Positions 1 through 47,946 of a DNA stretch of 47,946 nucleotides are shown here, piece by piece (the stretch's first letter is position 1; each line of letters opens with the position of its first letter). Source of the stretch: a virus (Duplodnaviria > Heunggongvirae > Uroviricota > Caudoviricetes); the IMG/VR virus record IMGVR_UViG_2681813146_000002. The stretch is one strand, 5' to 3'. The notes below the pieces were generated by a model. The model searched no databases, was not told the DNA's origin, and was given only the letters and a program-made list of their open reading frames with translations. Position numbers and translations under genes: made by a program.

Positions 1-869
1 CCAATACAGGGCTTGAGTTACTGTCTGATGTGTATCCCCGCTTCAAGTTGGTTCCTGGACAAGTGATTGCGCCTGGATTTAGTTCTGATAGTGAAGTTGG
101 TCAGCTAATGGCGGCTAAAGCCGCGTTGATTAGTGAATTGTTCAAAGCAGAAGCCATAACTGATGCACCGACCGATAAATCTACTATCAGTGATTACTCG
201 GCTGTTCCTGAATGGAAACAGAACAATAATCACATGGCCGCTAACCAGACAGTGTGCTGGCCGATGGTGAAACTTGGTGACAATATTTACCATCACTCAA
301 CCCATTTAGCGGCCGCAACATGCTTGCTGGATAGTCAGTATGGTGATATTCCATCACGTTCTCCGTCAAATATAAAACTACAGATGGACGGTGCTGTACG
401 TAAAGATGGCAGTGAAGTATGGCTTAACATTAGCCAGGCAAACTACTTAAATGGTCAGGGGATTGTAACAAGCCTTAATTTTGATGGTTGGAAATCATGG
501 GGAAACCGTAATGCTATTTATCCAACATCTACAGACCCCAAAGACGCATTTCGTGTTTGCCGACGTATGTTTAACTGGGTGGGTAATACGTTAATTCTTT
601 CGCATTGGTCAAAAATAGACAATCCTGCAAACCGTCGATTAATTGAATCGATTGTTACAAGTGCGAATATTTGGCTTAACGGCCTCACAGGTAATCAGGA
701 TATTGCAGGTGGTGTTGTTACCTTTGATCAGTCTGAAAACACGATTACGTCATTGATGGACGGGATTGTTAAATTCCATGTAAAAATGACACCATTCTCA
801 CCTGCCAGAGATATAGAGTTCGTCATGGAATATAATCCTGATTATCTGCTGAACTTGTTTTCTGAATAA
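1..869 (+). CDS. Contractile tail sheath protein, C-terminal part; the gene crosses the window junction and its N-terminal part is 47257..47946
   Basis: ORF 30..869 is in frame with the ORF starting ATG 47257 once the 95-bp terminal duplication is collapsed. Sits directly upstream of the tube gene. P2 FI / Mu L-like by recollection. Confidence 0.7.
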   Translation, partial: NTGLELLSDVYPRFKLVPGQVIAPGFSSDSEVGQLMAAKAALISELFKAEAITDAPTDKSTISDYSAVPEWKQNNNHMAANQTVCWPMVKLGDNIYHHSTHLAAATCLLDSQYGDIPSRSPSNIKLQMDGAVRKDGSEVWLNISQANYLNGQGIVTSLNFDGWKSWGNRNAIYPTSTDPKDAFRVCRRMFNWVGNTLILSHWSKIDNPANRRLIESIVTSANIWLNGLTGNQDIAGGVVTFDQSENTITSLMDGIVKFHVKMTPFSPARDIEFVMEYNPDYLLNLFSE

Positions 870-885
870 ATAATAGGAGGTTGCT

Positions 886-1407
886 TTGAGCAATCAAATT
901 CCTGAGAGACTTATTAACTTTACAGTATACGGTGAGGGAAACCGTATTATCGGTGTTGCTGACGCAAAGCTGCCATCAATTGAGATGATGACAGAAACTG
1001 TTAGTGGTGCAGGTATCGCTGGAGAGCTTGAGAGCGGAACGCTGGGGCATTTCAAACCAATGACTGTCTCTCTTAAATGGCGAACTCTGACCTCTGCTGG
1101 TACAAAATTATTTCTATCCTCATCGCATCAGGTAGATTTTCGCGGTAGCCAGCAGGTTTATGATGCAGGAACAGGAAAATATAAAACGGTTCCTATTCGG
1201 GCTTCAATGAAGCTAAACCCTAAAAAACTGGATTTAGGTTCGCTACAGGTGGCAAAGGCTACTGATTCAGAGAATGAATTTGAAGTTCTCTATATCAAAT
1301 TATTTATTGATGGAAAAGAAGTCTTGGAAATTGATAAGTTGAACTTTATTTGTATCTTTGATGGTGAAGATATATTAAAAAGCGTTCGTGATGATTTAGG
1401 TTTATAA
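886..1407 (+). CDS. Tail tube protein (P2 FII-like)
   Basis: 173 aa directly after the sheath gene. TTG start 5 nt after AGGAGG. Confidence 0.65.
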   Translation: MSNQIPERLINFTVYGEGNRIIGVADAKLPSIEMMTETVSGAGIAGELESGTLGHFKPMTVSLKWRTLTSAGTKLFLSSSHQVDFRGSQQVYDAGTGKYKTVPIRASMKLNPKKLDLGSLQVAKATDSENEFEVLYIKLFIDGKEVLEIDKLNFICIFDGEDILKSVRDDLGL

Positions 1408-1416
1408 GGTGACAAA

Positions 1417-1698
1417 ATGGAAACCGTTAAATTAAGTAAAGAATATCGTTTTGAAGACTTTGAGCCGGTGACTGAACTCAACCTTGATTTAGACAACTTA
1501 AAAGGCAGTGATATTTTAGAGGTATCGGACTTACTGCAATCTCAAGGGCATGTTTCAGTTCAAACATCACTTGATAATAAAGTCCATGCAGCCTTGGCTG
1601 CTCGCTGTATTGGTCGTCCAATAGAGTATCTGAATGGATTACCAGCGAAAGACTTTGTTAAAGTTTGTCAAAAGGTGCAGAATTTTTTGCTCTCGTAG
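1417..1698 (+). CDS. Tail assembly chaperone (gpE/gpG-like)
   Basis: 93-aa acidic protein between tube and tape measure. Ends at a slippery heptamer. Confidence 0.6.
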   Translation: METVKLSKEYRFEDFEPVTELNLDLDNLKGSDILEVSDLLQSQGHVSVQTSLDNKVHAALAARCIGRPIEYLNGLPAKDFVKVCQKVQNFLLS

Positions 1699-1847
1699 GT
1701 TTTGATGAGCAAAAACCTATTGATAAGCAAATAATGAGGGCCGCGAGTTCTCTATCTCAATCATCTCAATCAACACCTATATCCTACTGGCTTTCGCTTC
1801 GGTTGAGGCGAATCGTCGCATGGATTGATGTGTTTAATGAGGATTAA
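1665..1847 (+). CDS. -1 frameshift extension of the tail assembly chaperone (GT / E+E'-like product)
   Basis: Overlapping ORF in the -1 frame relative to 1417..1698. The frame junction is at the T_TTT_TTG heptamer. Confidence 0.55.
   Translation: MSKGAEFFALVGFDEQKPIDKQIMRAASSLSQSSQSTPISYWLSLRLRRIVAWIDVFNED
1683..1689 (+). other. Candidate -1 programmed ribosomal frameshift slippery site T_TTT_TTG
   Basis: In the zero frame the codons are AAT TTT TTG. After a -1 slip the reading frame continues as F F A L V G F D E Q, matching the downstream ORF. Confidence 0.55.
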
Positions 1848-1852
1848 TACTA

Positions 1853-4645
1853 ATGGCCAGCAATAAGAACTTTAAGCTGGCTTTTGAAATTGGCGGCAAA
1901 GTTGCCGCCTCTCTCCCCAAAAGTTTTACTACAGCTAATCAGGCTGTTGCTAAATTAAATGCCGAGCTTGCTGGATTAACGAAAGAACATGGGGAAATTC
2001 AAAAGCTACAATCTGTAAAAGTAAAGGTTGGACAGACTGCCCTCGAATATCATAAAGCTGCCGCTCGCGTTGAAGAGTTACAGAAGCAAATAAAAAACAC
2101 GGCTAATCCAACCAGAGCGATGCTTCGTGACTTTGAGAAGGCAAAAACACATTCCTCGAATTTACGAGCATCACTACGTTCTCAGCGTGAAGAACTGGCC
2201 GCTTTAAAGTCTGCCTATCAGGGAGCTGATACATCTGCCAGAGCTTTGGCCTCAAGAGAGAAAGAGCTTAAAGCCAGCATTGATCGTAATCGTGAGGCTC
2301 AGGCCCGTAGCGTTGAGCAGGTTAACCGCTACAGAACGGCTTTGGCTTTAGCCAGAGCAAATGTTCAGCAAGTGAAAAAACAGCAGGAGGAACTTAACCG
2401 GGCATTAGAAAAACAACGTATTGATAAAATTAACAGCTATAAAAATGCGTTGGCTGAAGCACGGAAAAATGTTCTTGCAGTAAAACGTGCTCAGGAGGAG
2501 TTAAACCGCGCGTTGGAAAGGCAGCGTGAATTGAAGCGAGAGCATCTTGGTGAGGCAAAGAGTCAACTTGTAAGGTCAGGATTACAAACTGGTGCTGTAG
2601 CTGCTGGTGCATTTGCTGCTGCTAACAATGCAGCAAATTTCAATCGTGAAAACAAAATGATTGGTCTTACGGCAGATATGAAGCCGGAGGAAGTTCAGGC
2701 AATGGGGCAAGCGATGCTTGTTACCGGGGCGGCTACCAACCAGTTTGCATCTGATATTCAGGCCGCTCAGGGGTTTTTGGTTGCTGCGGGGCAGGATTAT
2801 AAAGAGGCTCAGGCGAATCTGCTGACTATTGGGCGAACGGCTACAGCTACTGGCTCTGATATCCTCGATGTCTCGAAAGCATCATTTACATTAAGTGACT
2901 CATTGAAGATTGATCCATCCCAAATGAAGTCTGCAATGGGGATTCTTGTTCAGGCAGGGAAAGAGGGGAACTTTGAATTTAAAGATATGGCCAAAAATCT
3001 TCCTGTGCTTGGTGCTCAGTTCCAGGCATTAAAAATGGGAGGTAAAGAAGCCGCCGCGACGATGGGGGCAGCTCTGCAGATTGCTCGCAAGGGTTCCGCA
3101 ACTTCGGATGAAGCTGCTAATAATATGAACAACTTTTTGGCGAAAATACTTTCCCCTGAAACCCTGAAAAAAGCAAAGAAGAATTTCGGTGTAGATTTAT
3201 ATAAAATTGTCACAACAGCGCAGAAAAAAGGGCAGAATCCTTTCGAAGCTGCAATGCAGTCTGTCATGAAAATGACTAAGAACGGAGATCAGAAGTTACT
3301 TGGTGAACTATTTGGCGATATGCAGGTTCAGAACTTTGTTCGTCCGATGATTCAAAACTGGAAGGAATACCAGAGAATCAAAGCAACATCTCTTGGTGCT
3401 GGAAGTGCTGTTATTGACCGCGATTTTGCCAATATAATGAAAGATAATGCGGAGCGATTGAAACAATTACGTATTCAGGCTAGCAATGCATCATTAAGTT
3501 TTGGTCAGGCCTTGCAACCTGCTTTAAATGCCGCGCTTAGTGTTTTGGTTCCACTGATTACAAAAATTAGTGAATTTGTAGCTAATAACCCCAATTTTGT
3601 TTCTCAGATTGTGATGACGGCAGGCGCGTTTCTAACCATGAAAAGTGTGGTTATAGCGTGTAGGGTAGCTATGCTGGCTTTATCTGTAGCGACAAAGCTA
3701 ACACCCTTCGGATGGATTCAGATGGCCATATCAGCCATTGTGGCGTTGGGTATATTGTTGTATCAGAACTGGGATAAAATAAAAGAATGTGCATCAAAAG
3801 TTTGGCCTGCTATTAAGGAGTACACAGTTAAGTCTTTTGAGGCTATAAAAAACTTTATCTTAAACTTTGATCTCAATGGATGGATTATATCCATGTTTGG
3901 TAAAGCATGGGGTTATCTTTCCAATATAAACTGGAGTTCGGCAGGAGTAAAAATTTACAGTACATTAATTAGTGCTTTTAAATGGATGTCTCCGCTTCCA
4001 TTATTAATTAAAGCGTTTAAATATATAACAAATTATCTTTCAGGCGTTAACTGGAGCGAAACAGGAAAGAAAATCATAGATACACTGGTATCTGTTTTTA
4101 TGCGTTTTTCACCTGTTGGACTCTTTATAAGAGCATTTCAATCTGTAACGACTTATTTATCTGGAATAAACTGGAGTGAGTCAGGTGCGAAAATAATTGA
4201 GACGTTAATCACAGGGATAAAATCAAAAGCAAATGCTTTGATTAATGAAGTGAAAGGTGTTTTTTCTTCTGTTCGTGAGTATTTGCCGTTTTCTGATGCG
4301 AAAAAAGGTCCATTCTCACAGCTAACAAAGTCAGGTGGTGCAATAATGACTACTCTGGCATCTGGTGTTAGCAGAAATAACAGCTTACAGAATGCAATCG
4401 CAACCAAGTTCGGGCAATCAAATTTATCACCTCGCGGGATCTCTGCTGCCGGGAGTTCTGGACCTCGCCAGAACGTTAACGCAGTGACTGGTGGGATAAC
4501 CTATTCACCTGTAATCAATCTTCCGGCTGGTTCACCAAAGGAAACTGAGGCGGCAGCTAAAAGAGCATTAGATGCGGGATATTCTGATTTTGAGAAGAAA
4601 TTGAGTGCTCATATGTTCCAACAACGGAGATTAAGTTTTGGATGA
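1853..4645 (+). CDS. Tail tape measure protein
   Basis: 930 aa with a coiled-coil-rich N-terminus and hydrophobic repeated C-terminal segments. Follows the frameshifted chaperone. Confidence 0.8.
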   Translation: MASNKNFKLAFEIGGKVAASLPKSFTTANQAVAKLNAELAGLTKEHGEIQKLQSVKVKVGQTALEYHKAAARVEELQKQIKNTANPTRAMLRDFEKAKTHSSNLRASLRSQREELAALKSAYQGADTSARALASREKELKASIDRNREAQARSVEQVNRYRTALALARANVQQVKKQQEELNRALEKQRIDKINSYKNALAEARKNVLAVKRAQEELNRALERQRELKREHLGEAKSQLVRSGLQTGAVAAGAFAAANNAANFNRENKMIGLTADMKPEEVQAMGQAMLVTGAATNQFASDIQAAQGFLVAAGQDYKEAQANLLTIGRTATATGSDILDVSKASFTLSDSLKIDPSQMKSAMGILVQAGKEGNFEFKDMAKNLPVLGAQFQALKMGGKEAAATMGAALQIARKGSATSDEAANNMNNFLAKILSPETLKKAKKNFGVDLYKIVTTAQKKGQNPFEAAMQSVMKMTKNGDQKLLGELFGDMQVQNFVRPMIQNWKEYQRIKATSLGAGSAVIDRDFANIMKDNAERLKQLRIQASNASLSFGQALQPALNAALSVLVPLITKISEFVANNPNFVSQIVMTAGAFLTMKSVVIACRVAMLALSVATKLTPFGWIQMAISAIVALGILLYQNWDKIKECASKVWPAIKEYTVKSFEAIKNFILNFDLNGWIISMFGKAWGYLSNINWSSAGVKIYSTLISAFKWMSPLPLLIKAFKYITNYLSGVNWSETGKKIIDTLVSVFMRFSPVGLFIRAFQSVTTYLSGINWSESGAKIIETLITGIKSKANALINEVKGVFSSVREYLPFSDAKKGPFSQLTKSGGAIMTTLASGVSRNNSLQNAIATKFGQSNLSPRGISAAGSSGPRQNVNAVTGGITYSPVINLPAGSPKETEAAAKRALDAGYSDFEKKLSAHMFQQRRLSFG

Positions 4646-4856
4646 TTACAGAACGGTTCAGGGGGATTCGTGGGATAGTATCGCGTTAAAGCTGTATGGT
4701 AATGAGTACCTGTCTTACCTTCTGATTGATGCTAATACAGAGCACCGTTTTACGGTGCTTTTTTCTGCGGGAATTATTCTTAAAGTTCCTGATGCTCCAG
4801 ATATGCCAACAGCAGTAAACAATTTGCCTCCGTGGAGACGCAATAGTGTTACGTAA
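4638..4856 (+). CDS. LysM-like tail protein (P2 gpX-like)
   Basis: 72 aa with a DSWDSIALKLYG LysM-like motif. Position is immediately after the tape measure gene. Confidence 0.5.
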   Translation: MDDYRTVQGDSWDSIALKLYGNEYLSYLLIDANTEHRFTVLFSAGIILKVPDAPDMPTAVNNLPPWRRNSVT

Positions 4857-5850
4857 AACGCTTTTTGATGTTATATATCAGAATGTAAATATTACCGCTC
4901 ATATGTCGCCTGATATTTTATCAATATCTTATACGGATAATGAAGATGGTCAGGTCGATGATATATCAATTACATTAAAAAATGATGATGGAAAATGGTC
5001 TGGAGACTGGACACCTAAAAAGGGTGATTTTATTGATTTGAGCTTTAAGCCTATAAATCAAATTGTCCTTGAGTGCGGGAAATTCCAGGTAGATGGCATA
5101 ACTTGCTCTGGGCCACCTTCTGTTGTTGAGGTGACTGCTGTTTCTGTTCCTGTTTCATCAGGAATCAGACGTAATTTAAAAAGTAATGCATGGGAAAAGA
5201 CAACACTCAAAGATATTGCTGCATCTATAGCTAAATTAGCTAATATTGAATTGTTGTTCCTTATTGATAAGGATAGTAATCCATATTATGCGCGTGAAGA
5301 TCAGACTGAGGAAAGCGACTTAAAATTTCTCCATCGGCTTTGCCAGGATGAAGGATTATCGTTAAAGGTTACTGATACCCAATTAGTGATATTTGCTCAA
5401 GAGATGTTTGAGCAAAGAGAGCCTATCGCCACGCTTACATTAGGCGTTGATGAGATAATAAGATATAGCTTTAGCACACAATCTACGGATTTGTATAAAA
5501 GTTGTACATGTAAATATCGTATTCCGAAGAAAAGAAAATCGCTTTCATATACTTGGGTAGATCCATCTGTAGAAGAAGGGTCGAATCTTAAAATAAGAAA
5601 AGTGGTAGCTAATTTAGATGAAGCAAAACGTAAGGCAAAAGCCGCTTTGCGGCTTAAAAATAGATATCAAAATACCGGGTCTTTAGTATTGGTTGGAGAC
5701 ACTAGGCTGGTAGCTGGTGTAACTATAAGCCTAGAAGGGTTTGGTTCATTTTCTGGAAAATATCTTATATCGAAAGCTGTACATTCAATTGGGGCCAGTA
5801 GTGGTTATACCACCTCGATTGATGTCCGAAGAGTAATTAGCGGGTATTAA
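4846..5850 (+). CDS. Tail/baseplate hub protein (P2 gpD / Mu gpP-like)
   Basis: 334 aa, in the tail module between the LysM protein and the spike gene. Confidence 0.5.
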   Translation: MLRKTLFDVIYQNVNITAHMSPDILSISYTDNEDGQVDDISITLKNDDGKWSGDWTPKKGDFIDLSFKPINQIVLECGKFQVDGITCSGPPSVVEVTAVSVPVSSGIRRNLKSNAWEKTTLKDIAASIAKLANIELLFLIDKDSNPYYAREDQTEESDLKFLHRLCQDEGLSLKVTDTQLVIFAQEMFEQREPIATLTLGVDEIIRYSFSTQSTDLYKSCTCKYRIPKKRKSLSYTWVDPSVEEGSNLKIRKVVANLDEAKRKAKAALRLKNRYQNTGSLVLVGDTRLVAGVTISLEGFGSFSGKYLISKAVHSIGASSGYTTSIDVRRVISGY

Positions 5851-5851
5851 T

Positions 5852-6472
5852 ATGAATGATTTAGAAACATTATTACGTCAGACTATAAGAGTTGGCGTTG
5901 TTTCTGATATTGATGATGGTGATGTTACAGCAAGAGTTACTTTCGATGATCAGGATAACGTCACTTCGGCAAAGTTATCAGTTATTGTGAAAAACACAGA
6001 TAAGAATGCTGATTACTGGATGCCAGATATTGGCGAGCAGGTTTTGTGTATCTTTCATCCCGCGGGGCCGCAACAAGGTTTTATTCTTGGTAGTTTTTAT
6101 GATGAAACACAGAAGCCGCCATCTAATACTGTTAATAAACGCGTCATTAGATTTAATAACGGAACTCGTATTGAGGTAGACAGAGAATCTAATTTACTCC
6201 TTGTTGATGCTGTCGGAGATGTAACCGTTAAGGCTACAGGAACCGTAACTATTGATGCTCCAGAAACCATCATTACCGGAAATGCTACAGTTGAAGGATT
6301 ACTAACCTTCAAAGGTGGAATGAAAGGATCTTCTGCTGGAGGTGTTGCAGCTACAATTTCTGGGGATGTTAAGGTTGTTGGTGGTGATATAGATGTTGAT
6401 GGGATTAAATCTAAAGGCCACCATCACACAGCTCAGGGGGAATACGCTCCGACAACGGAGGCTCAGGCATGA
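5852..6472 (+). CDS. Baseplate spike protein (gpV-like)
   Basis: 206 aa. N-terminal pattern resembles the Phage_base_V family; glycine-rich C-terminus. Confidence 0.6.
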   Translation: MNDLETLLRQTIRVGVVSDIDDGDVTARVTFDDQDNVTSAKLSVIVKNTDKNADYWMPDIGEQVLCIFHPAGPQQGFILGSFYDETQKPPSNTVNKRVIRFNNGTRIEVDRESNLLLVDAVGDVTVKATGTVTIDAPETIITGNATVEGLLTFKGGMKGSSAGGVAATISGDVKVVGGDIDVDGIKSKGHHHTAQGEYAPTTEAQA

Positions 6473-6936
6473 TTGTGGGTATGCTTGGTACAATGCCTTT
6501 TGTTGCCTCATCAATAGTGGTGAATACGTTCAACAATTTTAAAAGGACGTCAAAGCGTCGTGTAGCGCGCCATGATGTTATTGGGCTTAAACCTGTTCTG
6601 GAGGATATAGGTCCAGATCTGGATGAAGTTGGTTTTAATATGCGGCTGGATACAACACTTGGCATTGTTCCATTGGCTGCGCTTTCATTACTTAGGACAA
6701 TGCAATCAATTCAGGAAGTAAATCCTGTTGTAATTGGTATTCAGTATTTTGGTAATTTTATAATTACAGATATAGAGGAATCATGGACTTATTTCGGTCC
6801 AACTGGGAATCCACGAGTGATTATCGTCGGCATTAAATTACAGGAGGTCGGACAGACCTCTCTGAAAGAAGCATTAGTTGATATTGCTGGCAATATAGAG
6901 TCAAAAACTAGAAGTGCGTTAGGTAAATTATTATGA
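6469..6936 (+). CDS. Tail/baseplate protein, family uncertain
   Basis: 155 aa, translationally coupled between the gpV-like and gpW-like genes. Confidence 0.4.
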   Translation: MIVGMLGTMPFVASSIVVNTFNNFKRTSKRRVARHDVIGLKPVLEDIGPDLDEVGFNMRLDTTLGIVPLAALSLLRTMQSIQEVNPVVIGIQYFGNFIITDIEESWTYFGPTGNPRVIIVGIKLQEVGQTSLKEALVDIAGNIESKTRSALGKLL

Positions 6937-7253
6937 ATAATACGTTTACCATATCATCACCTTCTTACTCGATTGATTGGTCGCCCAAAACAGTTGTAGA
7001 AGAAGTTTTGCAAAATGTCTCTACTATTATTAACACTCAGATTGGCACTGTGCCATATGCCAGAAAATTAGGAATTAATTCAAGTCTTGTTGATATCCCC
7101 AGCCCAATTTTTATTGCTACAGCAACACGAGAAATAATTCAAAAAATTAGTGAGTTTGAGCCTAGAGCGATTATCCATTCTGTTACTTTTGAAAGAACGG
7201 ACGTTTCTGATGGTTTTATTAGGCCAAAACTTGTGATAGGAGTTAGAGAATGA
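6933..7253 (+). CDS. Baseplate wedge protein (gpW / gp25-like)
   Basis: 106 aa, size and position typical of GPW_gp25. Confidence 0.6.
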   Translation: MNNTFTISSPSYSIDWSPKTVVEEVLQNVSTIINTQIGTVPYARKLGINSSLVDIPSPIFIATATREIIQKISEFEPRAIIHSVTFERTDVSDGFIRPKLVIGVRE

Positions 7254-8374: not shown

Positions 8375-8948
8375 TATCTTTAATGTTAGCTTGTTGGATG
8401 TTTTACCTCCTAACTTAGCTAGAGATCCCAACGTGATAGCTATGTCGAAAGCTATTGATGATGAACTACAAGCAATTAACAATTTAATATATAAGACAGA
8501 AATATATAGCGTTGTTGATAACCTGGACTCAGTTGTTCTCGATCATTTAGCTTGGCAATGGAATGCTGATACATGGAGGGATAGTTGGCCTGTATCGTTA
8601 AAGCGTTCTGTTTTTAAATCAATAATACGAACAAAGCGAATAAAGGGTACAAGGGCAGCGGTTGAAGATGTAGTAAATAGCTTGGGTGGAGAGGTAAGCA
8701 TAACAGAATGGTTTGAAACATCACCACCCGGAGAACCATATACAGCTTCAATTGTTGCTTCGATTAACTCTTTTGATGGCGCTGTCCCTTCGAAAGAGAT
8801 GTTGGAGGATACGTTAAGAAGTATCAAGAGTGCAAAGTCGGCAAGAACACTATTTACATTTTCGCAAGCAACCTATGTTTCAGGTGGTGTTGGTATTGTC
8901 GGTGCTTTCCAGCCTGTGTCTTATGTACGATTAATTGGTGAGTGCTAA
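8367..8948 (+). CDS. Baseplate/tail protein (gpI-like)
   Basis: 193 aa, follows the gpJ-like gene and precedes the tail fibre. Confidence 0.6.
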   Translation: MADIFNVSLLDVLPPNLARDPNVIAMSKAIDDELQAINNLIYKTEIYSVVDNLDSVVLDHLAWQWNADTWRDSWPVSLKRSVFKSIIRTKRIKGTRAAVEDVVNSLGGEVSITEWFETSPPGEPYTASIVASINSFDGAVPSKEMLEDTLRSIKSAKSARTLFTFSQATYVSGGVGIVGAFQPVSYVRLIGEC

Positions 8949-11635: not shown

Positions 11636-11644
11636 GGAATTAAT

Positions 11645-12577: not shown

Positions 12578-12578
12578 T

Positions 12579-13278: not shown

Positions 13279-13325
13279 ATGATTGTGGGTGTCTGGTTGG
13301 AAAATGACCAGATATGGAAACAAAA

Positions 13326-39549: not shown

Positions 39550-39554
39550 ACCTC

Positions 39555-41411
39555 ATGGGCGAAACAGTATGGAGCACCGCTTTTTTCCGTGCGCTTCGCC
39601 CTAAATCACGGCTAACTGTTTCCGAATGGGCTGATAAGTATCGTCATGTAGCGCCGGGAACGTCTCCAGAGCCAGGGCCGTGGCGTACAAGCCGAGTGCC
39701 ATATTTGCGTGAACCAATGGATGTTATTGGTGACGCTGATACAGAAACAGTAGTGATGCAATGTAGCTCGCAAATTGGTAAATCCGAATTACAGCTAAAT
39801 GTTATGGGTTACTTTGCAGATCAGGAGCCATCTCCTCAGTTGATGATTTATCCAACGGTAGAGGCGGCTGAGGCTTTTTCAAAAGAGCGTATTGATCCGA
39901 CGTTCAAATATTCCCCTGGTTTGAAACACAAGCTGCATGAAGGGAAAGAGGGGCGCGGTGCAGCCAAAAAGTCCAGCACGACTATACGTATGAAGCATTA
40001 CGCTGGTGGATATATAGCACTTGTTGGTGCTAATTCCCCAGCAGGTCTTGCATCCAGGCCAATTCGAATACTGTTAGCTGATGAGATTGATCGTTACGGT
40101 GTGACGCAGGAGGGCGACCCACTAAAACTAGGTATTCAGCGTACTACCAACTTTCATAATCGTAAGAAAGTTTTTGTTTCTACTCCTGTTTTGGAGGAAA
40201 CGAGCAAAATCCACAAGTGGTTTAAGCTCTCCGATCAGCGTTACTACCATGTTCCTTGCCCATGTTGTGGCACCATGCAGGTGATGAAATGGTCGCAAGT
40301 CAGATGGGATAAGAGCGATTCAGGTGAGGCGTTACCGGAAACGGCCAGATATGAGTGCTGTGAGTGCGGCGGGATTATGCGCGGATCTGGTAAACCAGAC
40401 GTTGATTGGTTGGCGAAGGGGGTATGGATAGCTGAACATACTGGAGTTAAAGGTATTGTTGGTTTTCATATTAACAGTCTTTACTCCCCGTGGGTTGCAT
40501 TGTCAGAGCTGGTTGAAGAATTTACGGAAGCAACCAGAAACCGCGATAAAAATGGATTAATGGAGTTTATTAACCTTAAGCTGGGTGAGCCATGGAAAGA
40601 GGATGCTAAAGACGATATCGATCCTGAATACTTGTTGCAACGCAGAATAAGGTTTGAAGAGTTTTTACCAGATGATGTTTTATTGTTAAGTGCTGGTGTT
40701 GACGTACAGGACACGTATTTAGTTTGTGAATTGGTCGGTTGGGGAAAAGGTAAGGAGTCATGGGGGATAGAATATAAAATATTCCCAGGTGATCCCGCAC
40801 AAGATGTTGTCTGGAAACAACTTGATGAATACTTACTCCGTAGCTGGTCATTCCGTGACGGTCGAAAATTACAGATTTCTTCCGTTTGTATTGACTCTGG
40901 TGGGCATTTTACGACAGAGGTATATCGCTTTACTAAGCCGAGAGAATCAAGGCGAATATACTCTATCAGGGGGCGTGGTGGGGTAGGTTTACCATTTATA
41001 GGAAAGCCAAGTAATAATAACCGTGTGGGTGCTATGTTGTTTAATTTGGGGGTTGATGATGGTAAAGGGACCATCATGGCAAGAATTAAACTACATGATC
41101 CTGGTCCTGGTTATATGCATTTCCCATTAGATTCTGACAGAGGATATGATACCGAATACTTTAAAGGATTATTATCAGAGAAGAAAATATTTGAATATAA
41201 AAATGGGCAGACAAAAGAAAAGTGGGTGAAAGTCTACGAGCGTAACGAGCCTCTTGATTGCCGTAACTATGCAACTGCCGCGATGGAAATTCTGAACCCT
41301 AATTTTAACTGGCTTGCCGAACAGGAAATGCGAGGTAATGTGTATGTGCAGAACTCGTCAGGTATACGTAGAAGACGCCGTAGAGTTATAAGTAAAGGCG
41401 TAACCATATAG
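39555..41411 (+). CDS. Terminase large subunit (lambda gpA-like)
   Basis: 618 aa with a Walker A-like segment near QCSSQIGKSE. Sits between TerS and the portal. Confidence 0.75.
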   Translation: MGETVWSTAFFRALRPKSRLTVSEWADKYRHVAPGTSPEPGPWRTSRVPYLREPMDVIGDADTETVVMQCSSQIGKSELQLNVMGYFADQEPSPQLMIYPTVEAAEAFSKERIDPTFKYSPGLKHKLHEGKEGRGAAKKSSTTIRMKHYAGGYIALVGANSPAGLASRPIRILLADEIDRYGVTQEGDPLKLGIQRTTNFHNRKKVFVSTPVLEETSKIHKWFKLSDQRYYHVPCPCCGTMQVMKWSQVRWDKSDSGEALPETARYECCECGGIMRGSGKPDVDWLAKGVWIAEHTGVKGIVGFHINSLYSPWVALSELVEEFTEATRNRDKNGLMEFINLKLGEPWKEDAKDDIDPEYLLQRRIRFEEFLPDDVLLLSAGVDVQDTYLVCELVGWGKGKESWGIEYKIFPGDPAQDVVWKQLDEYLLRSWSFRDGRKLQISSVCIDSGGHFTTEVYRFTKPRESRRIYSIRGRGGVGLPFIGKPSNNNRVGAMLFNLGVDDGKGTIMARIKLHDPGPGYMHFPLDSDRGYDTEYFKGLLSEKKIFEYKNGQTKEKWVKVYERNEPLDCRNYATAAMEILNPNFNWLAEQEMRGNVYVQNSSGIRRRRRRVISKGVTI

Positions 41412-41422
41412 AGGAAATATAA

Positions 41423-41662
41423 ATGAACAATGAAGCATTTTCTCTGACTGAAGCCAGAGAGATGTTATCTGTCTGGCGGGAAGCATATCGCGCTATTGCT
41501 ATTGGCGGTCAGTCATATAAATTTGGTACGCGGCAGTTAACTCGTGCGGATTTATCAGAAGTCAGAAAAGAGATGGATTACTGGCGTAATGAAGTAGAAA
41601 GATTATCAGCAGGTATACGCCGAGGCCCACGAATTAAACGAGTGGTGATAAGAGATTTATGA
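41423..41662 (+). CDS. Head-tail joining protein (gpW-like)
   Basis: 79 aa between the terminase and portal, as in the lambda order. Confidence 0.45.
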   Translation: MNNEAFSLTEAREMLSVWREAYRAIAIGGQSYKFGTRQLTRADLSEVRKEMDYWRNEVERLSAGIRRGPRIKRVVIRDL

Positions 41663-43233
41663 ATATTCTTGATCGAGTTATTGCGCCGTTTTCACCTCAG
41701 AGGGCATTAAATCGAGCTTTGGCAAGAAAACGGTTAGAAGCACTTGAAGGTATTAATAACCTTGGATATTCACGTCATGGTGCAAGCACTCATAAAAAAT
41801 CATTAAGGGGTTGGTTTAGTAAAGCTGGTTCTCCTGATGATGATATTGTTAAAAATATAGATAAATTGCGTGAGCGTTCTCGTGATCTCTTCATGGGAAA
41901 CCCGCTATCGGTTGGCGCAATAAAAACTATCAGGACAAACGTTGTTGGTTCCGGTTTAAAACTAAATGCGAACATTGATGCCGATTTCTTGGGGATGACG
42001 CAGGAAGAAGCGCGAGCATGGGAAAAGCATGTTGAGCGTGAGTTTAGATTATGGGCTGATTCTCCAAATTGTGATGCATCAAGAATGTGTACTTTTGGAC
42101 AATTGCAATCATTGGTCCAAATATCTGCGTTAACATCTGGCGATATATTTGCTGCGCTACCAGTTATTAAGCGTAAGGGTGTTATATATGATTTGTGCGT
42201 CTATTTAATTGAAGGTGATCGTGTTTGCAATCCAGAGGATCGTTTTATACCAAATCTTTACGGTGGCGTAGAGGTTGGTGAATTTAGCGAGCCTGTGGCG
42301 TACTGGGTTGCAAAACATCACCCAGCCGGGACTTCTGGTTTTGTAACCCGCAAGTGGGAACGTATTCCCGCATATGGGAGTAAAACAGGAAGAAGAAATA
42401 TTCTGCATGTCATGCAGGATTTTGAAAGGCCTGGGCAACGCCGTGGCGTTCCTGTACTTGCTCCTGTTATTGAAGCATTGAAGCAGTTAGGACGATACAC
42501 CGATGCTGAATTGGTTGCTGCGGTTGTGTCAGGGATGTTTACTGTCTTTATTAAAACAGACGCTCCTGATGGACCAGTCGGTGAATCGGGTATCCCTCAG
42601 TACGAGCAGATCGATAACCATGATGATAACACCCAAGAAATGGGGAATGGCTCCATAGTAAGTTTGGGTGAAGGTGAGTCGATAGATACAGCAAATCCCG
42701 GGCGACCAAATACGGCATTTGATGGTTTTGTTGTCGCCATATGCCGTCAAATTGGGGCTGCTTTAGAACTCCCTTACGAACTCTTGGTAAAGCATTTTAC
42801 AGCAAGTTATAGCGCTAGCAGGGCCGCATTACTTGAAGCCTGGAAAATGTTCCGTATGCGACGTGACTGGATGGTTCAGTCATTTTGCCAACCGATCTAT
42901 GAGGAATGGTTGGCCGAAGCCGTTGCTAAAGGTCGTGTTATTGCCCCTGGTTTTTTTTATGGGCCTGAATATCGCGCTGCATGGAGTGGCGCTCAATGGT
43001 ATGGCCCATCACAAGGCCAATTAGATCCCCTTAAAGAAGTCAAAGCTGCAAAACTGCGTGTTGAGGAAACATTCTCTACCCGTGAAAAGGAAGCGGCTGA
43101 AATGTCAGGTCTTAACTGGGAAGAAACCGCACAAATTTGTGGCAGAGAAGAGAATGCTCGCCGTGAGTTGGGGCTGATTACGCCTCCTGTTTCTGAGGTA
43201 AATGAACAAAATATGGAGACAGATGATGCCTAA
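41659..43233 (+). CDS. Portal protein (lambda gpB-like)
   Basis: 524 aa, position after TerL and the W-like gene. Confidence 0.7.
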   Translation: MNILDRVIAPFSPQRALNRALARKRLEALEGINNLGYSRHGASTHKKSLRGWFSKAGSPDDDIVKNIDKLRERSRDLFMGNPLSVGAIKTIRTNVVGSGLKLNANIDADFLGMTQEEARAWEKHVEREFRLWADSPNCDASRMCTFGQLQSLVQISALTSGDIFAALPVIKRKGVIYDLCVYLIEGDRVCNPEDRFIPNLYGGVEVGEFSEPVAYWVAKHHPAGTSGFVTRKWERIPAYGSKTGRRNILHVMQDFERPGQRRGVPVLAPVIEALKQLGRYTDAELVAAVVSGMFTVFIKTDAPDGPVGESGIPQYEQIDNHDDNTQEMGNGSIVSLGEGESIDTANPGRPNTAFDGFVVAICRQIGAALELPYELLVKHFTASYSASRAALLEAWKMFRMRRDWMVQSFCQPIYEEWLAEAVAKGRVIAPGFFYGPEYRAAWSGAQWYGPSQGQLDPLKEVKAAKLRVEETFSTREKEAAEMSGLNWEETAQICGREENARRELGLITPPVSEVNEQNMETDDA

Positions 43234-44290
43234 TTGGTGGGAAATAAAAAATAGCACGGGTGAAGATGACTCTCCGGCTGAACTTTTAATCTACGGATAT
43301 ATTGGCGAATTTGATGAGGTTTCTTCTTCTGACATAGTTAATAAATTAAAGGATATATCATCAAATGCTATCAACGTAAAAATTAATAGTTATGGTGGTT
43401 CTGTTTTTACTGCTCAAGCTATTCTTTCTTCATTAAAACGTCATAAGGCTAATATTACTGTTTATATTGATGGTATTGCTGCATCGGCTGCAACCATTAT
43501 TGCAATGGCAGGTGATAAAGTTGTTATCCCATCTAATGCTATGATGATGATCCATAATCCGTGGACATTTGCTGCTGGTGATGCGGATGAACTACGTGAT
43601 ATTGCTGAGATGATGGATAAGATACGAGATAGTATTTTATCTGCATATAAGGAGAAAACAGGGCTTTCTGAGGATAAATTAATTGAACTAATGGATCAGG
43701 AAACATGGCTAAATGCAGAAGAGGCTGTAGAGCTTGGATTTGCTGACGAAGTTGAAAAACCAATGCGCTTATCCGCTTCTATAAAGGAAGGGATGCTTTC
43801 GCTCAATGGAATAACTTTTGAAGCATCAAGGTTTTCAAAATTACCTGATTCGCTCGCAAAGTTGCCACAAAATAAAAATGAATTATCTACTGAATTAAAT
43901 GAACAAAATGAGGACGATGTTGTGACTCTTGATGAATTAAAAAATAAACATCCAGAATTATACAATCAGGTTTTTAATGCTGGTAAAGACGAGGGCGTTA
44001 AATCAGAACGCGAGCGCATTGAAACAATCGAGAATAGCGTAATTCCAGGTCATGACGACCTGGTTAAGAATGCAAAATTCAAAACGGGAATTTCTGCGGC
44101 TGAACTTGCTTTGGAAATTATGAATGCAGAGCGAGCGCGTAACAAAAACTTTCTTAATCAACGGCAAGAAGACGCAAATGAGGTGAATGATTCAGTTGAT
44201 GTTAATCAACCAGAAAACAACGGCGATAAACAAGCTGAAGTAGTAAAAAATGTTATTGGGTCAGTATTCAAAAACCGCGATAAAAATTAA
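43226..44290 (+). CDS. Prohead protease (S49/ClpP-like, gpC-like) with C-terminal scaffold-like region
   Basis: S49-like core plus an acidic, coiled C-terminal region. Start taken at ATG 43226 after GGAGA; the track ORF starts 43202. Confidence 0.65.
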   Translation: MPNWWEIKNSTGEDDSPAELLIYGYIGEFDEVSSSDIVNKLKDISSNAINVKINSYGGSVFTAQAILSSLKRHKANITVYIDGIAASAATIIAMAGDKVVIPSNAMMMIHNPWTFAAGDADELRDIAEMMDKIRDSILSAYKEKTGLSEDKLIELMDQETWLNAEEAVELGFADEVEKPMRLSASIKEGMLSLNGITFEASRFSKLPDSLAKLPQNKNELSTELNEQNEDDVVTLDELKNKHPELYNQVFNAGKDEGVKSERERIETIENSVIPGHDDLVKNAKFKTGISAAELALEIMNAERARNKNFLNQRQEDANEVNDSVDVNQPENNGDKQAEVVKNVIGSVFKNRDKN

Positions 44291-44299
44291 GGTGAGTTT

Positions 44300-44683
44300 A
44301 TGCGAGAGTCTTTTTCATTTGAACCAGATAATCTGATTATTTCTGGTGGTATGCCAGCAATTACAACAAGTATTAAACTTGCCAGCGGTAAAGTAAATCG
44401 AGGTGAGTTGCTTGCTTTTGTCAGTATTGATCAGACAACAAATGTTGTCACTGTGGCACCAATAAATCTCTCTGGTGAGGGGGTGGCAAAAGAACCGTAT
44501 TGTATCGCTCAACATAGTATTGATGCGACTGATTCAGCGCAAGTTGGAACAGCATGGCTGACCGGAATGTTCAATGCACATGCGGTTATCCTTCCTGAAT
44601 CAGCAAAGATTGCCGATGTATATCTGGCTTGCCGGAAGGTTGGGATATTCCTTAATACCGCACAACAAAATCCATCTGCATAA
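44300..44683 (+). CDS. Head decoration protein (gpD-like)
   Basis: 127 aa immediately before the major capsid gene. Confidence 0.45.
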   Translation: MRESFSFEPDNLIISGGMPAITTSIKLASGKVNRGELLAFVSIDQTTNVVTVAPINLSGEGVAKEPYCIAQHSIDATDSAQVGTAWLTGMFNAHAVILPESAKIADVYLACRKVGIFLNTAQQNPSA

Positions 44684-44703
44684 TATAAAGAGGTCGTATT
44701 TTT

Positions 44704-45747
44704 ATGCCGAATATTGATATTTTTGAACGACGTACAATGCTTGAGCCTGTTATTCAGAATTTCAAGGCTCGTCGTTTTCTTCTTCGTACCTTTTTTCCTG
44801 GTGTTCAGACCTTTAATACAAAGAAAGTTGATCTGGATTTTGTTCGCGGTGGCCGTACTATGGCTCCGTTTGTTGGTAAAGGTTTTGGCTCAAAAACCGT
44901 TGAGCGACGCGGCTTTGTAACGAGAACTCTGGAGCCACCACTTGTTGCACCTGATTTGGTAACAACAGCCGAGCTGCTTTTAAACAGGCTTCCGGGTGAG
45001 AATATTTACAACGCAAAATCGCCAGCAGAACGAGCCGCCGCGCAATTAGGTAAAGATTTGCTTGAGCTTGATGAAATGGTTAACCGCCGTGAAGAATGGA
45101 TGTGTGCACAAGTCTTGTTTACGGGGCAGGTTGATATTGTTGGTGAAGGAGTGGATGACACAGTTTATTTTTGGCCTGAAGAGGAAGGAGATAAACCATA
45201 TCTTGAACTGACAGGTGATGATTTATGGAGCGCAGCAAAATCAGATCCGTTGGTCAATGTTCGCAACTGGAAACGTCGGGTATCACTAACTTCAGGTTTT
45301 ACACCTCGTGTTGCCGTAATGGGCGCAAAAGTTGTTGATGCCTTCGTTAAAAATGAAGCAGTAACTAAATATCTTGATAATCGCCGAAAAGAGCTTGGGT
45401 ATATTGAGCCTAAGGAGTTAGAAGAAGGCGTAACTCATTATGGCAATCTTGAAGGTGTCGATTTTTATGGTTACGACGAACTTATTCGCAATGATAAAAC
45501 AGGAAAACCAGAACCATTAGTACCGGAAGATAAGATCCTCTTTGGCTCTCCTGGTCGAGGAACGATGCTGTATGGTGCTGTAGAGCTTGTAGATGACGCC
45601 GAAAAGACTCTGACGATTGTTGAGTCGCCACGAGTTCCAGACACCTGGGTAACTCGTAAGCCGGCTGGCCGTTATGTTGCCATGAAGTCATCTCCACTGC
45701 CTAATCCTGGTGTGGCTGATGCCTATCTGGTGGCTAAGGTGGTTTAA
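44704..45747 (+). CDS. Major capsid protein (lambda gpE-like)
   Basis: 347 aa. N-terminal pattern FLLRTFFPGVQTFNTKKVDLDF resembles lambda E. Confidence 0.7.
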   Translation: MPNIDIFERRTMLEPVIQNFKARRFLLRTFFPGVQTFNTKKVDLDFVRGGRTMAPFVGKGFGSKTVERRGFVTRTLEPPLVAPDLVTTAELLLNRLPGENIYNAKSPAERAAAQLGKDLLELDEMVNRREEWMCAQVLFTGQVDIVGEGVDDTVYFWPEEEGDKPYLELTGDDLWSAAKSDPLVNVRNWKRRVSLTSGFTPRVAVMGAKVVDAFVKNEAVTKYLDNRRKELGYIEPKELEEGVTHYGNLEGVDFYGYDELIRNDKTGKPEPLVPEDKILFGSPGRGTMLYGAVELVDDAEKTLTIVESPRVPDTWVTRKPAGRYVAMKSSPLPNPGVADAYLVAKVV

Positions 45748-46140
45748 ATGGCCAGACTGATTAAAAACATTGATACGATAAGCCACGGCTCGCTAAAAGC
45801 GGGCCGTTTGCTTAATGGGCTAATGGATAACTCCAGAATTGCCGAACTGATTGCGTCAGGACATGCTATTGCCACCGAAGAGGATGGTGATTTGGCATCG
45901 GCTGGGGGCTATGATGCTGCTAAGTTAGCTTTTGAGCATGGATACGCATCTGCTGTTAATGATGCTGTGGACGCGGGGTTGATTACGCGAACGGAGGCGG
46001 GTAGCTGTGTATTCGAGGTTGAGTTTGAGGATGATGACGGCAATGAGGAAATGGTTGCTGATGATTCATCTGAATCTGTAGCTACTTCTGATACCAGTAA
46101 TGCGAAAAAATCAACGCAAAAAAAAGGTAATAAGAAGTAA
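45748..46140 (+). CDS. Hypothetical head-associated protein with acidic C-terminus
   Basis: 130-aa ORF after the capsid gene. Confidence 0.35.
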   Translation: MARLIKNIDTISHGSLKAGRLLNGLMDNSRIAELIASGHAIATEEDGDLASAGGYDAAKLAFEHGYASAVNDAVDAGLITRTEAGSCVFEVEFEDDDGNEEMVADDSSESVATSDTSNAKKSTQKKGNKK

Positions 46141-46484
46141 TGAACTCCTTCAAAGAGGTTATAGCGCAAGATATTTCTGCAATATTCCTCAATGAAAAAG
46201 AGTTTGCCGATACATATAACATAGACGGCAAGGATATCCTTGCCGTTATTGATACAGACCTTATTCATGAGCGTAATAAACGCTCATATGCTGAGTTTGC
46301 AGAGGGAATAAATCAGGGGCAAATAATATTATTTGTTTCAAGAAAAGATTTTCCTGTTCTCCCTGTCAAAGACCAGTCAATGAAAATCAACGGTAAAAAT
46401 TATATTGTTGATGAAGTATCAGATAATGTTGGTGTATTGGAAATAACTCTCACTGTTAATACTAACAGAGGAATGCCGATTTGA
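46140..46484 (+). CDS. Head-tail connector/completion protein, family uncertain
   Basis: 114-aa ORF between head and tail modules. Confidence 0.35.
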   Translation: MNSFKEVIAQDISAIFLNEKEFADTYNIDGKDILAVIDTDLIHERNKRSYAEFAEGINQGQIILFVSRKDFPVLPVKDQSMKINGKNYIVDEVSDNVGVLEITLTVNTNRGMPI

Positions 46485-46966
46485 TTAATCTTTTGATAGA
46501 TGCAATAAAAAATCGGTTGGAACATGAGGTTTTCCATGATTTATTAGTGCAGGGGCCTCCTTATGATGAAACAGACAGCGATATTAAATTGTTTGTTCCA
46601 ACAATATTTAAAGGGTACTTGCCTCCTAAATCACAACCATCTCCAGATAAACCGCCAGAATTTCCTCATGTGATTATCAGACCCACGGAAGGAGGAATGC
46701 AGCCTGAAACGGATGAAGTTAAGGTTAAGTTTCTTCTAGGTGGTTTTTGTGAGGACCATACTGGATATGAATGGGTAATGGCTCTTCTTGAAAGGATGAT
46801 GTTTCATTTTCAGGAGAAGCCTTTACTTGAAGAGAAATTTCTCTTTCAGGGTGATATCAGATGGCGAATGTTTGATGATCAACCATATCCATATTGGATA
46901 ACGGAAGCAACTGGAACGTGGCTAGTATTAAAGCCTCAGAATATTCAGTCTCAGGAGTTTATCTAA
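46481..46966 (+). CDS. Head-tail connector/completion protein, family uncertain
   Basis: 161-aa coupled ORF. Confidence 0.35.
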   Translation: MINLLIDAIKNRLEHEVFHDLLVQGPPYDETDSDIKLFVPTIFKGYLPPKSQPSPDKPPEFPHVIIRPTEGGMQPETDEVKVKFLLGGFCEDHTGYEWVMALLERMMFHFQEKPLLEEKFLFQGDIRWRMFDDQPYPYWITEATGTWLVLKPQNIQSQEFI

Positions 46967-47257
46967 ATGGCTATTAAGAAAAGTAGTAAAGAAGATATAG
47001 AAAAGAAGGAAGATGTTGCTCAAACATTTGTATATATAGGACCAACAATCCCTCAACTCTCAATTTTGAAGCATAAACTATTTAAGAATGGCTTATCTCC
47101 AGAGTGTAAAAAATTAATATCACATATTCCTGGTGCAAAGTGTTTGTTTGTGGCAACCAGTGATTTTGCAGATGCAGAAAAAAGACTTTCTGATAAAACC
47201 AGTGTCGAGTATGTAATGTACTCTAGAGTTTCTTCTTCTATCATGGAGATTAAATAA
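46967..47257 (+). CDS. Hypothetical protein preceding the sheath gene
   Basis: 96-aa ORF; its stop overlaps the sheath start (TAATG). Confidence 0.35.
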   Translation: MAIKKSSKEDIEKKEDVAQTFVYIGPTIPQLSILKHKLFKNGLSPECKKLISHIPGAKCLFVATSDFADAEKRLSDKTSVEYVMYSRVSSSIMEIK

Positions 47258-47946
47258 TGGGATATCGCCACGGTATTTATATATCTGAGCTGGCTACATC
47301 TATAACTCCTCCAGTACAAGTTAGTGCTGGGTTGATTGTCGCATTTGGTACAGCTCCTGTTAATCAGTTAGAAGATCCAGCCTCAGCAGTAAATAAACCT
47401 ATCATTGCTTATACATACGCAGAGGCCGTATCTAAAATAGGATATAGCACAAACTTCGAGAAATATACTTTAAGCGAAGTAATTAAAGTCGCATTTGGAA
47501 TATATGGTGTTGCGCCAGTTGTATTTATCAATGTGCTTGATCCAGCAAAGCATAAGAAAGACGTAACTGATGAGGTAGTAAAACTTTCTGGCGGGAAAGG
47601 TACGCTCTCTAACGATGGTGTCTTATATAAATCTGTTGTTGTGAAAAAAGCAGATGGTGATTCGCCAGGGTTAACGGTTGATACCGATTATGTGCTGGCG
47701 CTGGATGATAATGGCTATACGGTCATTACCGCTATTAGCGGAGGAAAAATTACCGAAAAAGACGCTACTCTTAAGGTTAGTTATACGCATCTTGATCCCG
47801 GTGCCGTAACTAAAAATGACATTATCGGTGGTGTGGATTCCAACACTAAAGCCAATACAGGGCTTGAGTTACTGTCTGATGTGTATCCCCGCTTCAAGTT
47901 GGTTCCTGGACAAGTGATTGCGCCTGGATTTAGTTCTGATAGTGAA
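47257..47946 (+). CDS. Contractile tail sheath protein, N-terminal part; continues into 1..869
   Basis: ATG 47257 overlaps the upstream stop. The frame is open to the window end and matches the frame of ORF 30..869 through the terminal duplication. Confidence 0.7.
   Translation, partial: MGYRHGIYISELATSITPPVQVSAGLIVAFGTAPVNQLEDPASAVNKPIIAYTYAEAVSKIGYSTNFEKYTLSEVIKVAFGIYGVAPVVFINVLDPAKHKKDVTDEVVKLSGGKGTLSNDGVLYKSVVVKKADGDSPGLTVDTDYVLALDDNGYTVITAISGGKITEKDATLKVSYTHLDPGAVTKNDIIGGVDSNTKANTGLELLSDVYPRFKLVPGQVIAPGFSSDSE
47852..47946. repeat. 95-bp terminal duplication of positions 1..95
   Basis: Exact sequence identity between the window's start and end, lying inside the sheath coding sequence. 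Confidence 0.9.

Follow-up and report, generated by a model that had tools for sequence, protein, structure and literature searches.

A 47,946-nucleotide viral sequence very probably represents a complete temperate myovirus kept as a circular plasmid in Escherichia coli

The IMG/VR record IMGVR_UViG_2681813146_000002 (Duplodnaviria; Heunggongvirae; Uroviricota; Caudoviricetes), a stretch of 47,946 nucleotides referred to here in its entirety as the window, combines the genes of a contractile-tailed virion with those of a plasmid replicon, which raises the question of how such an element is kept in its host. A first-pass annotation made from the letters alone had described it as a complete, circularly permuted phage-plasmid with an extrachromosomal lifestyle, carrying an IncFII-like RepA, a ParA/ParG-like pair, a toxin-antitoxin pair and full virion, lysis and immunity modules. 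The data presented here indicate that the window is very probably one full copy of a temperate myovirus that Escherichia coli maintains as a circular plasmid at low copy number: the virion, packaging and lysis gene set is complete, a plasmid initiator and a ParA protein are present, and an integration module is absent. The element is already known, having been deposited many times, isolated as phage and labelled a phage-plasmid in print.

The lifestyle of the element is indicated by its close relatives. Along 95–98% of its length the first half of the window is 97% identical to a number of circular plasmid records from E. coli, each approximately 48 kb, and at least 80% of this half is covered by 27 plasmid records. 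The second half is 98–99% identical over 90–95% to records of this type. Members of this family (CP009073, 48,488 bp; CP116126; NZ_CP069971; OR545053-55) share 96–99% identity with the window over 85–98% of its length, and gene order is the same around the whole circle in the window and the ~48-kb E. coli plasmids. The maintenance and immunity module (positions 13100-23400, 10.3 kb), searched for at a coverage of at least 80% in 5,426 complete E. coli genomes, was found in 57, and in all 57 on a separate record of 39–94 kb; carriers include several independent assemblies of strain ATCC 25922 (48,488 bp). Matches to this module on chromosomes were short pieces of the antirepressor gene, held in common with lambdoid prophages. 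When the head module (38400-47851) was searched against complete E. coli genomes it was present in 72 of them at 87 places, 86 of these on plasmid records. Plasmid pDETEC34 (CP116126) matches the maintenance module over 100% of its length (98.0% identity) and is placed under ‘phage-plasmid’ in Table S10 of PMC10100714. The extrachromosomal lifestyle proposed for the element is thus supported by every complete-genome copy of the relatives’ maintenance module.

Relatives are also found among isolated phages. The Yersinia phages vB_YpM_39, vB_YpM_41 and vB_YpM_44 (OR545053-55), deposited as plaque-isolated phages of Y. pestis EV76, match 81–84% of the first half of the window at 96.5–97.0% identity and 41–42% of the second half, with a head module that is 99.0–99.4% identical, and the window covers 87–88% of each of their genomes, the gaps being the fibre region and small accessory cassettes. 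Packaging genes and a lambda-type head occupy 38408..47257 on the plus strand (Pfam, PHROGs), starting with a ParB_N protein (38408-38998) and continuing with a small terminase (38989-39549; PHROG 57, 2.5e-41), a large terminase (39555-41411; Pfam GpA_ATPase 1.5e-75, GpA_nuclease 2e-84), a DUF6148 protein (41423-41662; Pfam), a lambda-family portal (41659-43233; Phage_portal_2 3e-100), a ClpP-type protease (43202-44290; CLP_protease 3e-31), a gpD-like decoration protein (44300-44683; HDPD 0.002), a gpE-type major capsid protein (44704-45747; Phage_cap_E 6e-54) and head-tail connector genes (45748-47257). A contractile tail and baseplate of P2 type are encoded at 886..8948 on the same strand (Pfam), comprising the tail tube (886-1407; Phage_tube 6e-43), tail chaperones (1417-1847), tape measure (1853-4645; PhageMin_Tail 4e-21), gpD-like hub (4846-5850; Phage_GPD), gpV spike (5852-6472; Phage_base_V), GpU (6469-6936; Phage_P2_GpU 2e-20), gpW/gp25 (6933-7253), gpJ (7250-8374; Baseplate_J 1.5e-53) and gpI (8367-8948; Tail_P2_I 3e-26). 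The gpA-type terminase, portal, ClpP-type protease, gpD-like protein and gpE capsid are common to the window and lambda, and the FII, U, D, V, W, J and I tail and baseplate proteins to the window and P2, so that these Pfam matches bear out the combination of a lambda-like head with a P2-type contractile tail. Unlike both phages, the window is without int/xis and attP and carries this combination of modules on a plasmid backbone. The lysis cassette (30244..31774, plus strand) consists of two holins (30244-30687 and approximately 30674-30970; Pfam Phage_holin_8 6e-36 and Phage_holin_3_7 1e-15), a GH108 endolysin (30957-31499; Glyco_hydro_108 5e-26, PG_binding_3 1e-25) and an Rz-like spanin (31496-31774; PHROG 1026, 2e-30).

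Differences between the window and these relatives are confined to a few small cassettes and the tail-fibre module (8979..13106, plus strand), which encodes a fibre of 792 residues, a 92-codon open reading frame (ORF), a second fibre protein of 310 residues and a fibre assembly protein, with Pfam matches to Phage_fiber_2, Gp34_trimer (5e-30) and Caudo_TAP (4e-35). On nucleotide comparison this module is a mosaic: positions 10062-11326, within the first fibre gene, are 95% identical to lateral fibre genes of the unrelated E. coli phages Tritos, 2G7b and HannyBb, while other parts match the S and U genes of P1 at 85–89% identity. Most relatives carry a Hin-type invertase and an invertible fibre segment, and some of them IS26, IS21, IS3 or IS200/IS605 elements; neither invertible segment nor Hin was found in the fibre module of the window (tblastn for Hin), and in the window and in NZ_CP069971 two tandem fibre genes stand in place of the segment. 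A few small accessory cassettes also differ between the window and the ~48-kb family.

These differences bear on whether the element could be a defective remnant, a plasmid-borne phage that still replicates but produces no infectious particles. All structural, packaging and lysis genes of the window are intact ORFs with family matches from end to end, the isolated phage genomes are covered except for fibre and small accessory cassettes, and a sequenced plasmid (locus L001) has the same invertase-less fibre layout; a remnant is therefore unlikely, even though the invertible segment and invertase of the isolated phages are missing, the fibre module is rearranged, the repA leader described below has an allele unique to the window, and the window’s copy is known from its sequence alone.

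A site resembling dif, with the sequence GGTGCCGATAA-CGTCCA-TTATGTTAAAT, lies at 15655..15682 on the plus strand. It was the single match to a degenerate dif pattern (0.01 expected by chance), combines a perfect XerD arm with a spacer of 6 bp, and is identical in 15 of the 15 related loci that cover it; a cer-type Xer site with an 8-bp spacer was not found in the window. Xer-dependent resolution of dimers is established for ColE1 cer and pSC101 psi, and since the element is without a recombinase of its own, host-mediated resolution of dimers (multimers) is the simplest and a likely role for the site, at which host XerCD would act. The same site might instead serve integration without an integrase, by host XerCD at the chromosomal dif in the manner of CTX-phi. 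Conservation of the site, its low expectation by chance and the one head-module place on a chromosome-typed record are compatible with such a route, but the complete-genome copies are plasmid-sized records, and the element possesses a complete replicon and partition system; plasmids equipped in this way usually rely on an Xer site to resolve their dimers. Xer-mediated integration is therefore very unlikely.

Another reading is that of a conventional integrating prophage, caught as an excised circle or concatemer and carrying the plasmid genes as passengers. Pfam searches of all called genes and all long ORFs, together with PHROGs searches of non-structural genes, head-tail connector genes and the sheath gene, gave no family match in the window to an integrase, excisionase, transposase, invertase, serine recombinase or protelomerase, and tblastn with the relatives’ Hin invertase, TnpA and TnpB found nothing in it. 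The sole match of the recombinase search was an insignificant one of the small terminase to a Cox-like helix-turn-helix family, so the earlier failure to find an integrase, excisionase, transposase or protelomerase by eye stands. Circularity of an assembly does not by itself tell a plasmid apart from a phage genome that has excised or is replicating, one of the 87 head-module places is chromosomal, and a passage of PMC7969092 reports that P88, which has plasmid-like genes, is integrated, so that mixed lifestyles do occur. Set against the negative recombinase searches, the 57 of 57 maintenance-module copies on separate replicons and the conservation of replicon, partition, toxin-antitoxin and Xer features across relatives, these points leave an integrating prophage even less probable than Xer-mediated integration. 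The single chromosomal place could possibly reflect rare integration, a cointegrate or a misassembly.

The window closes into a circle. Positions 1-95 (1..95, no strand) are identical to 47852-47946 and no longer prefix matches a suffix; a 95-base exact match is not due to chance. Removal of one copy leaves a circle of 47,851 bp, and the tail sheath gene, interrupted by the ends of the record (5' part 47257..47946, 3' part 96..869, both plus strand; PHROG 23), becomes an uninterrupted ORF of 487 codons across the join with a match to PHROG 23 ‘tail sheath’ (E=2.9e-96); its counterpart in NZ_CP069971 is a gene of 1,464 nt annotated as ‘phage tail sheath family protein’. In that complete circular record the blocks corresponding to 34854-47851 and 1-12151 are adjacent (27268/27267), a long IMG/VR contig is continuous across the junction, and the related loci L001 and L002 jointly cover 98.5% of the circularised 47,851 bp. 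Both the splitting of the sheath gene by a 95-bp terminal duplication and the circle of ~47,851 bp deduced from it are thereby upheld. The duplication is most simply explained as an overlap left by the assembler where the molecule is circular, or assembles as a circle, rather than a terminal repeat of the virion genome, because it lies inside a structural gene, approximately 10 kb from the probable cos, and relatives are collinear across the join. Two metagenomic contigs containing the element exceed one unit, IMGVR_UViG_3300029841_000009 (68.5 kb) and OFCH01000023.1 (81 kb); their examined pieces (L008, L024, L032, L037; L015) are all collinear with the window, with each test pattern present once, and the remaining ~19 kb of the former may represent cargo, part of a cointegrate or flanking host DNA.

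The ends of the virion DNA are suggested by the way in which the phage genomes were deposited. The record of vB_YpM_39 starts at window position 37994, the alignment of vB_YpM_41 begins there too, with its base 1, and vB_YpM_44 starts at 38006, exactly 12 nt away; the vB_YpM_39 and vB_YpM_44 records each end just before their own start. Because these starts are 12 nt apart and fall between genes, ahead of a terminase of the lambda gpA type, the segment GGTCATTCGAAC (37994..38005, plus strand) is a probable 12-nt cohesive end. Virion DNA would then be linear with 12-nt cohesive ends cut near 37994-38005 by the lambda-type terminase, and would recircularise after injection. Three TCTTTAACC-like motif copies are present between the putative cohesive end and the packaging genes. 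‘Circularly permuted’ consequently describes the arbitrary start of the assembly but probably not the virion DNA, which would have fixed ends. Nor can defined genomic termini serve to refute a plasmid lifestyle, as the first-pass annotation had supposed, because a cos phage recircularises, provided that the cos is correctly placed. Least probable of all is that the molecule is linear and the 95-bp repeat a true terminal repeat, since, common as direct terminal repeats are in phage genomes and useful for calling completeness, this one sits within the sheath gene, the terminase is of the lambda gpA type that cuts at cos, the deposited phage genomes begin ~10 kb away at 37994/38006, and circular records and a long contig run through the join.

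How a plasmid of this kind would be replicated is indicated by repA (13447..14295, plus strand), which encodes an initiator of 282 residues from the ATG at 13447 (Pfam IncFII_repA, 8e-43). The protein scores 232 bits against NCBIfam NF040977 (cut-off 70) but fails the TIGR03474 incFII_RepA equivalog (79 against a cut-off of 446.9 bits) and is 31–40% identical to canonical IncFII RepA over 29–45% of the protein. The description of RepA as IncFII-like accordingly holds at the level of the superfamily (PF02387, NF040977) and not at that of the equivalog. Among the ~48-kb family RepA is 99.6–100% identical, and phages vB_YpM_39, vB_YpM_41 and vB_YpM_44, in which it is 99.6% identical, are the sole encoders of this RepA among 50,697 phage records. 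The next-closest RepA, at 36% identity over 94% of the protein, was that of NZ_CP117753.1, a 49,518-bp Enterobacter hormaechei plasmid, which may represent a sister phage-plasmid group in Enterobacter.

In RefSeq the RepA proteins of relatives have 325/326 residues, from an upstream ATG corresponding to window position 13314, whereas the Pfam profile begins 8 codons after the ATG at 13447, and the RepA of R100 has 285 residues. The upstream ATG opens a leader ORF, of 23 codons in the window (13314..13385, plus strand), which in most relatives continues without a stop into repA and is included in its annotation. In the window 61 nt separate its end from the repA ATG, in contrast to the overlap with repA seen in IncFII plasmids R1 and R100, where the leader peptide (tap) is translationally coupled to repA. 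An alignment of 22 leader sequences (the window, 4 annotated records, 6 IMG/VR contigs and 11 metagenome contigs) places nearly all variation in one patch of ~13 nt (window 13372-13387), with 10 alleles in the 22 sequences. Leader segments are 43, 45, 46 or 47 nt long and upstream indels break the frame, the upstream ORF being in frame with repA in 18 of the 22 sequences and out of frame in four (4 of the 10 alleles). Because frame is broken in these four, the N-terminal extension does not belong to the conserved RepA protein, and the window’s repA gene is probably intact; the RefSeq proteins of relatives probably start too early.

On the opposite strand the leader is predicted to encode a CopA-like countertranscript (13318..13435, minus strand). 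From 13435 to 13318 the minus strand has a minimum free energy of -68 kcal/mol (z=-8.8) and a terminator-like match, and the predicted RNA folds into a 20-bp hairpin with the variable patch unpaired near its tip, beyond which lie a GC-rich terminator stem-loop and a run of U residues. Such a layout corresponds to that of an IncFII CopA-type countertranscript. An antisense RNA of ~115 nt would pair with the repA leader and limit copy number, and its exposed loop, which varies among relatives, probably sets the incompatibility type; the loop allele of the window is absent from the 21 other sequences. Downstream of repA a probable origin (14437..14540, plus strand) consists of a DnaA box, TTATCCACA (14437-14445), 142 bp past the repA stop and the only perfect copy in the window, followed by an AT-rich repeat tract. 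By analogy with the architecture of IncFII oriR, RepA would fire this origin just 3' of its own gene. The window thus shares with R1 and R100 a PF02387 RepA, a leader ORF, a predicted two-hairpin countertranscript with terminator, and a DnaA box with AT-rich tract just 3' of repA, but in contrast to these plasmids no CopB-like gene was seen in the window.

A partition locus is present at 21048..22121 on the minus strand, comprising a ParA of 222 residues (21340-22008; Pfam CbiA/ParA/MipZ), a protein of 82 residues encoded 3' of parA (21048-21296), a candidate partner by position, and AT-rich direct and inverted repeats upstream of parA found by a repeat scan (22017-22121). ParA is of the small Walker type without an N-terminal DNA-binding domain, as expected for type Ib partition systems (ParF/ParG of TP228), matches ParF of TP228 weakly (4dzz, E=3e-4) and scores 78.5 bits against NF041546, below the cut-off of 180. 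The 82-residue protein gave no ParG match in Pfam, NCBIfam, a PDB sequence search or Foldseek with a single-sequence AlphaFold2 (AF2) model. In that model (pLDDT 74) residues 1-45 are floppy and two helices form the C-terminal part, a shape that a ParG-like ribbon-helix-helix protein could have, though it does not prove this identity. Of the proposed ParA/ParG-like pair, ParA is therefore confirmed by Pfam, whereas a likeness to ParG is suggested only by gene position and predicted shape. The two proteins would segregate plasmid copies by way of the AT-rich repeats. The predicted type II toxin-antitoxin pair was recovered at 15758..16404 (plus strand) as a Gp49/HigB-like toxin (15758-16105; Pfam Gp49, 2e-21; RelE/ParE family toxin in RefSeq) and a helix-turn-helix antitoxin (16105-16404; HTH_3, 1e-8), a HigB/HigA pair that would kill plasmid-free segregants.

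Lysogeny would be held by a CI-like repressor (22611-23267, minus strand; HTH_3 2e-10, PHROG 4 repressor 4e-27), which faces the rightward operon across an intergenic region with operator repeats (23304-23428; D3, D15, I3) in which ACCACATATCGTGGT-type sites recur. An immI-like module (18591..20157, minus strand) was identified by Rfam, Pfam and PHROG anti-repressor families and contains an IsrK-like RNA (20084-20157; Rfam isrK 68 bits, cut-off 50), a C4 antisense RNA (19971-20059; Rfam RF01695 70.8 bits, cut-off 45), a 75-codon ORF (19730-19957; PHROG 7886 only, of unknown function) and an antirepressor with ORF6N and Rha domains (18591-19733; ORF6N 9e-20, Phage_pRha 9e-12). The two RNAs lie directly upstream of the ORF and the antirepressor on the same strand, which is the arrangement of P1 immI (c4 - icd - ant), with the 75-codon ORF in the place of icd, and by this analogy the module is a second, RNA-gated layer of immunity beside the CI-like repressor; repression would probably be lifted through the antirepressor, its translation gated by the P1-type C4 RNA. 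Together with the holins, endolysin and spanin these Pfam and PHROG assignments support the earlier description of full lysis and immunity modules.

Several observations weigh against the interpretation of the window as a plasmid-maintained temperate phage. The one head-module place on a record typed as chromosome, which is absent from the 70 matches listed, is at odds with strictly extrachromosomal maintenance, and of the two contigs longer than one unit (68.5 and 81 kb) only parts were examined. Compared with most relatives, the window carries one additional base in its repA leader, but the frame is likewise lost in three further alleles. Rfam CopA gave no match over the repA leader even at E up to 5, and the candidate antisense promoter is weak by consensus (8/12). 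The Peptidase_S24 match of the repressor (17.6 bits) is below the Pfam threshold, and no LexA box lies near the antirepressor or the repressor, the only match in the window being inside a head-tail gene. The antisense RNA, the origin, the centromere, the function of the Xer site and the cos end are predictions, and for the physical state, inducibility and infectivity of the window’s own copy the basis is its sequence.

P1 is the archetypal circular phage-plasmid. It and the element described here are both plasmid prophages with a contractile tail, a C4 RNA upstream of an antirepressor, a Ref-type nuclease and an addiction module, and S/U-type fibre genes are shared in part. P1 has a genome of 94 kb, headful packaging from pac, an iteron-type RepA, ParA/ParB with parS and dimer resolution by Cre-lox, whereas the window probably packages from cos and has a RepA of the IncFII superfamily under a putative antisense RNA, a small ParA and no recombinase of its own. 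Membership in the pSLy3 group was considered and rejected, pSLy3 being an SSU5-type element. With the curated phage-plasmid groups (P1, N15, SSU5/pHCM2, pSLy3, pKpn, pMT1, AB) the window shares its lifestyle class. According to the text descriptions of these groups in PMC7969092 and 10.1101/2025.08.29.673033 they are siphoviruses of ~100 kb, linear N15-types or P1-types, and a 48-kb element with a lambda head and P2 tail is not among them as so described. The accessions of the relatives are not listed in the supplementary files of two later Pfeifer papers, and no paper dissecting this ~48-kb family was found. A 2026 preprint on heteroresistance mediated by phage-plasmids (10.64898/2026.08.19.745698) cites CP032086 and names RepA 41 times and copy number 20 times, so that part of the biology of the family may be covered there. 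The record NZ_CP032086.1 itself (E. coli ATCC 25922, 94,204 bp) has two places each for the maintenance and head modules, which suggests a dimeric form or a duplicated assembly of the 48.5-kb element.

It is tentatively proposed, at less than even likelihood, that the family constitutes a distinct, uncurated phage-plasmid group in which loop alleles act as incompatibility types and dimers are handed to host XerCD. If this is true, the loop alleles (10 in 22 sequences) would let related phage-plasmids coexist with or exclude each other. Approximately 1% of complete E. coli genomes carry a member of the family, among them that of ATCC 25922, a reference strain used for quality control. Such members are usually entered in databases as ‘plasmid unnamed’ or, where deposited as phages, with every gene product labelled hypothetical. 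Resistance genes are known to be carried by phage-plasmids, and a clear anatomy of replicon control, Xer site, immunity RNAs and cos would help annotation and typing. Little turns on the window itself, which is a 97–99% identical copy of deposited elements and is not made novel by the added features (antisense RNA, Xer site, immunity RNAs and cos), these being predictions.

The remaining features of the window were assigned as follows. A ryfA-like RNA is present at 20529..20825 on the plus strand (Rfam RF00126, 142 bits, cut-off 80) and contains a hydrophobic ORF of 40 codons (20675-20797); at blastn sensitivity it was found only in members of this family. In Salmonella ryfA encodes the small toxin TimP, and by analogy the locus may be a second addiction or stress module with a TimP-like small toxin. 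Tandem repeats suspected at 20.4–20.8 kb from three ORFs of equal length were not found, the region being that of the ryfA-like RNA. Genes from 32451 to 37114 on the plus strand, with small ORFs between them, include a MT-A70 methyltransferase (32451-33038; MT-A70 7e-22), a ParB_N protein (35118-35741; Pfam) and a fusion of ParB_N with an S-adenosylmethionine-dependent methyltransferase (35735-37114; ParB_N, Methyltransf_23). Together with the ParB_N protein at the start of the packaging block, the MT-A70 and three ParB_N proteins (32451-38998) look like DNA-modification or anti-restriction rather than partition functions. PADLOC analysis of ten accessory genes gave only weak toxin and helix-turn-helix matches. 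A tRNA-Met (CAT) gene lies at 32068..32143 on the plus strand (ARAGORN; Rfam tRNA, 67 bits). The early rightward operon (23442..30103, plus strand; Pfam, PHROGs) consists mostly of genes of unknown function but encodes a Ref-like nuclease (24678-25082), a DUF1064 protein (25079-25411) and a DUF3560 protein (25961-27028), all by Pfam, and PHROGs matches in the operon include a Holliday junction resolvase and a partial primase family.

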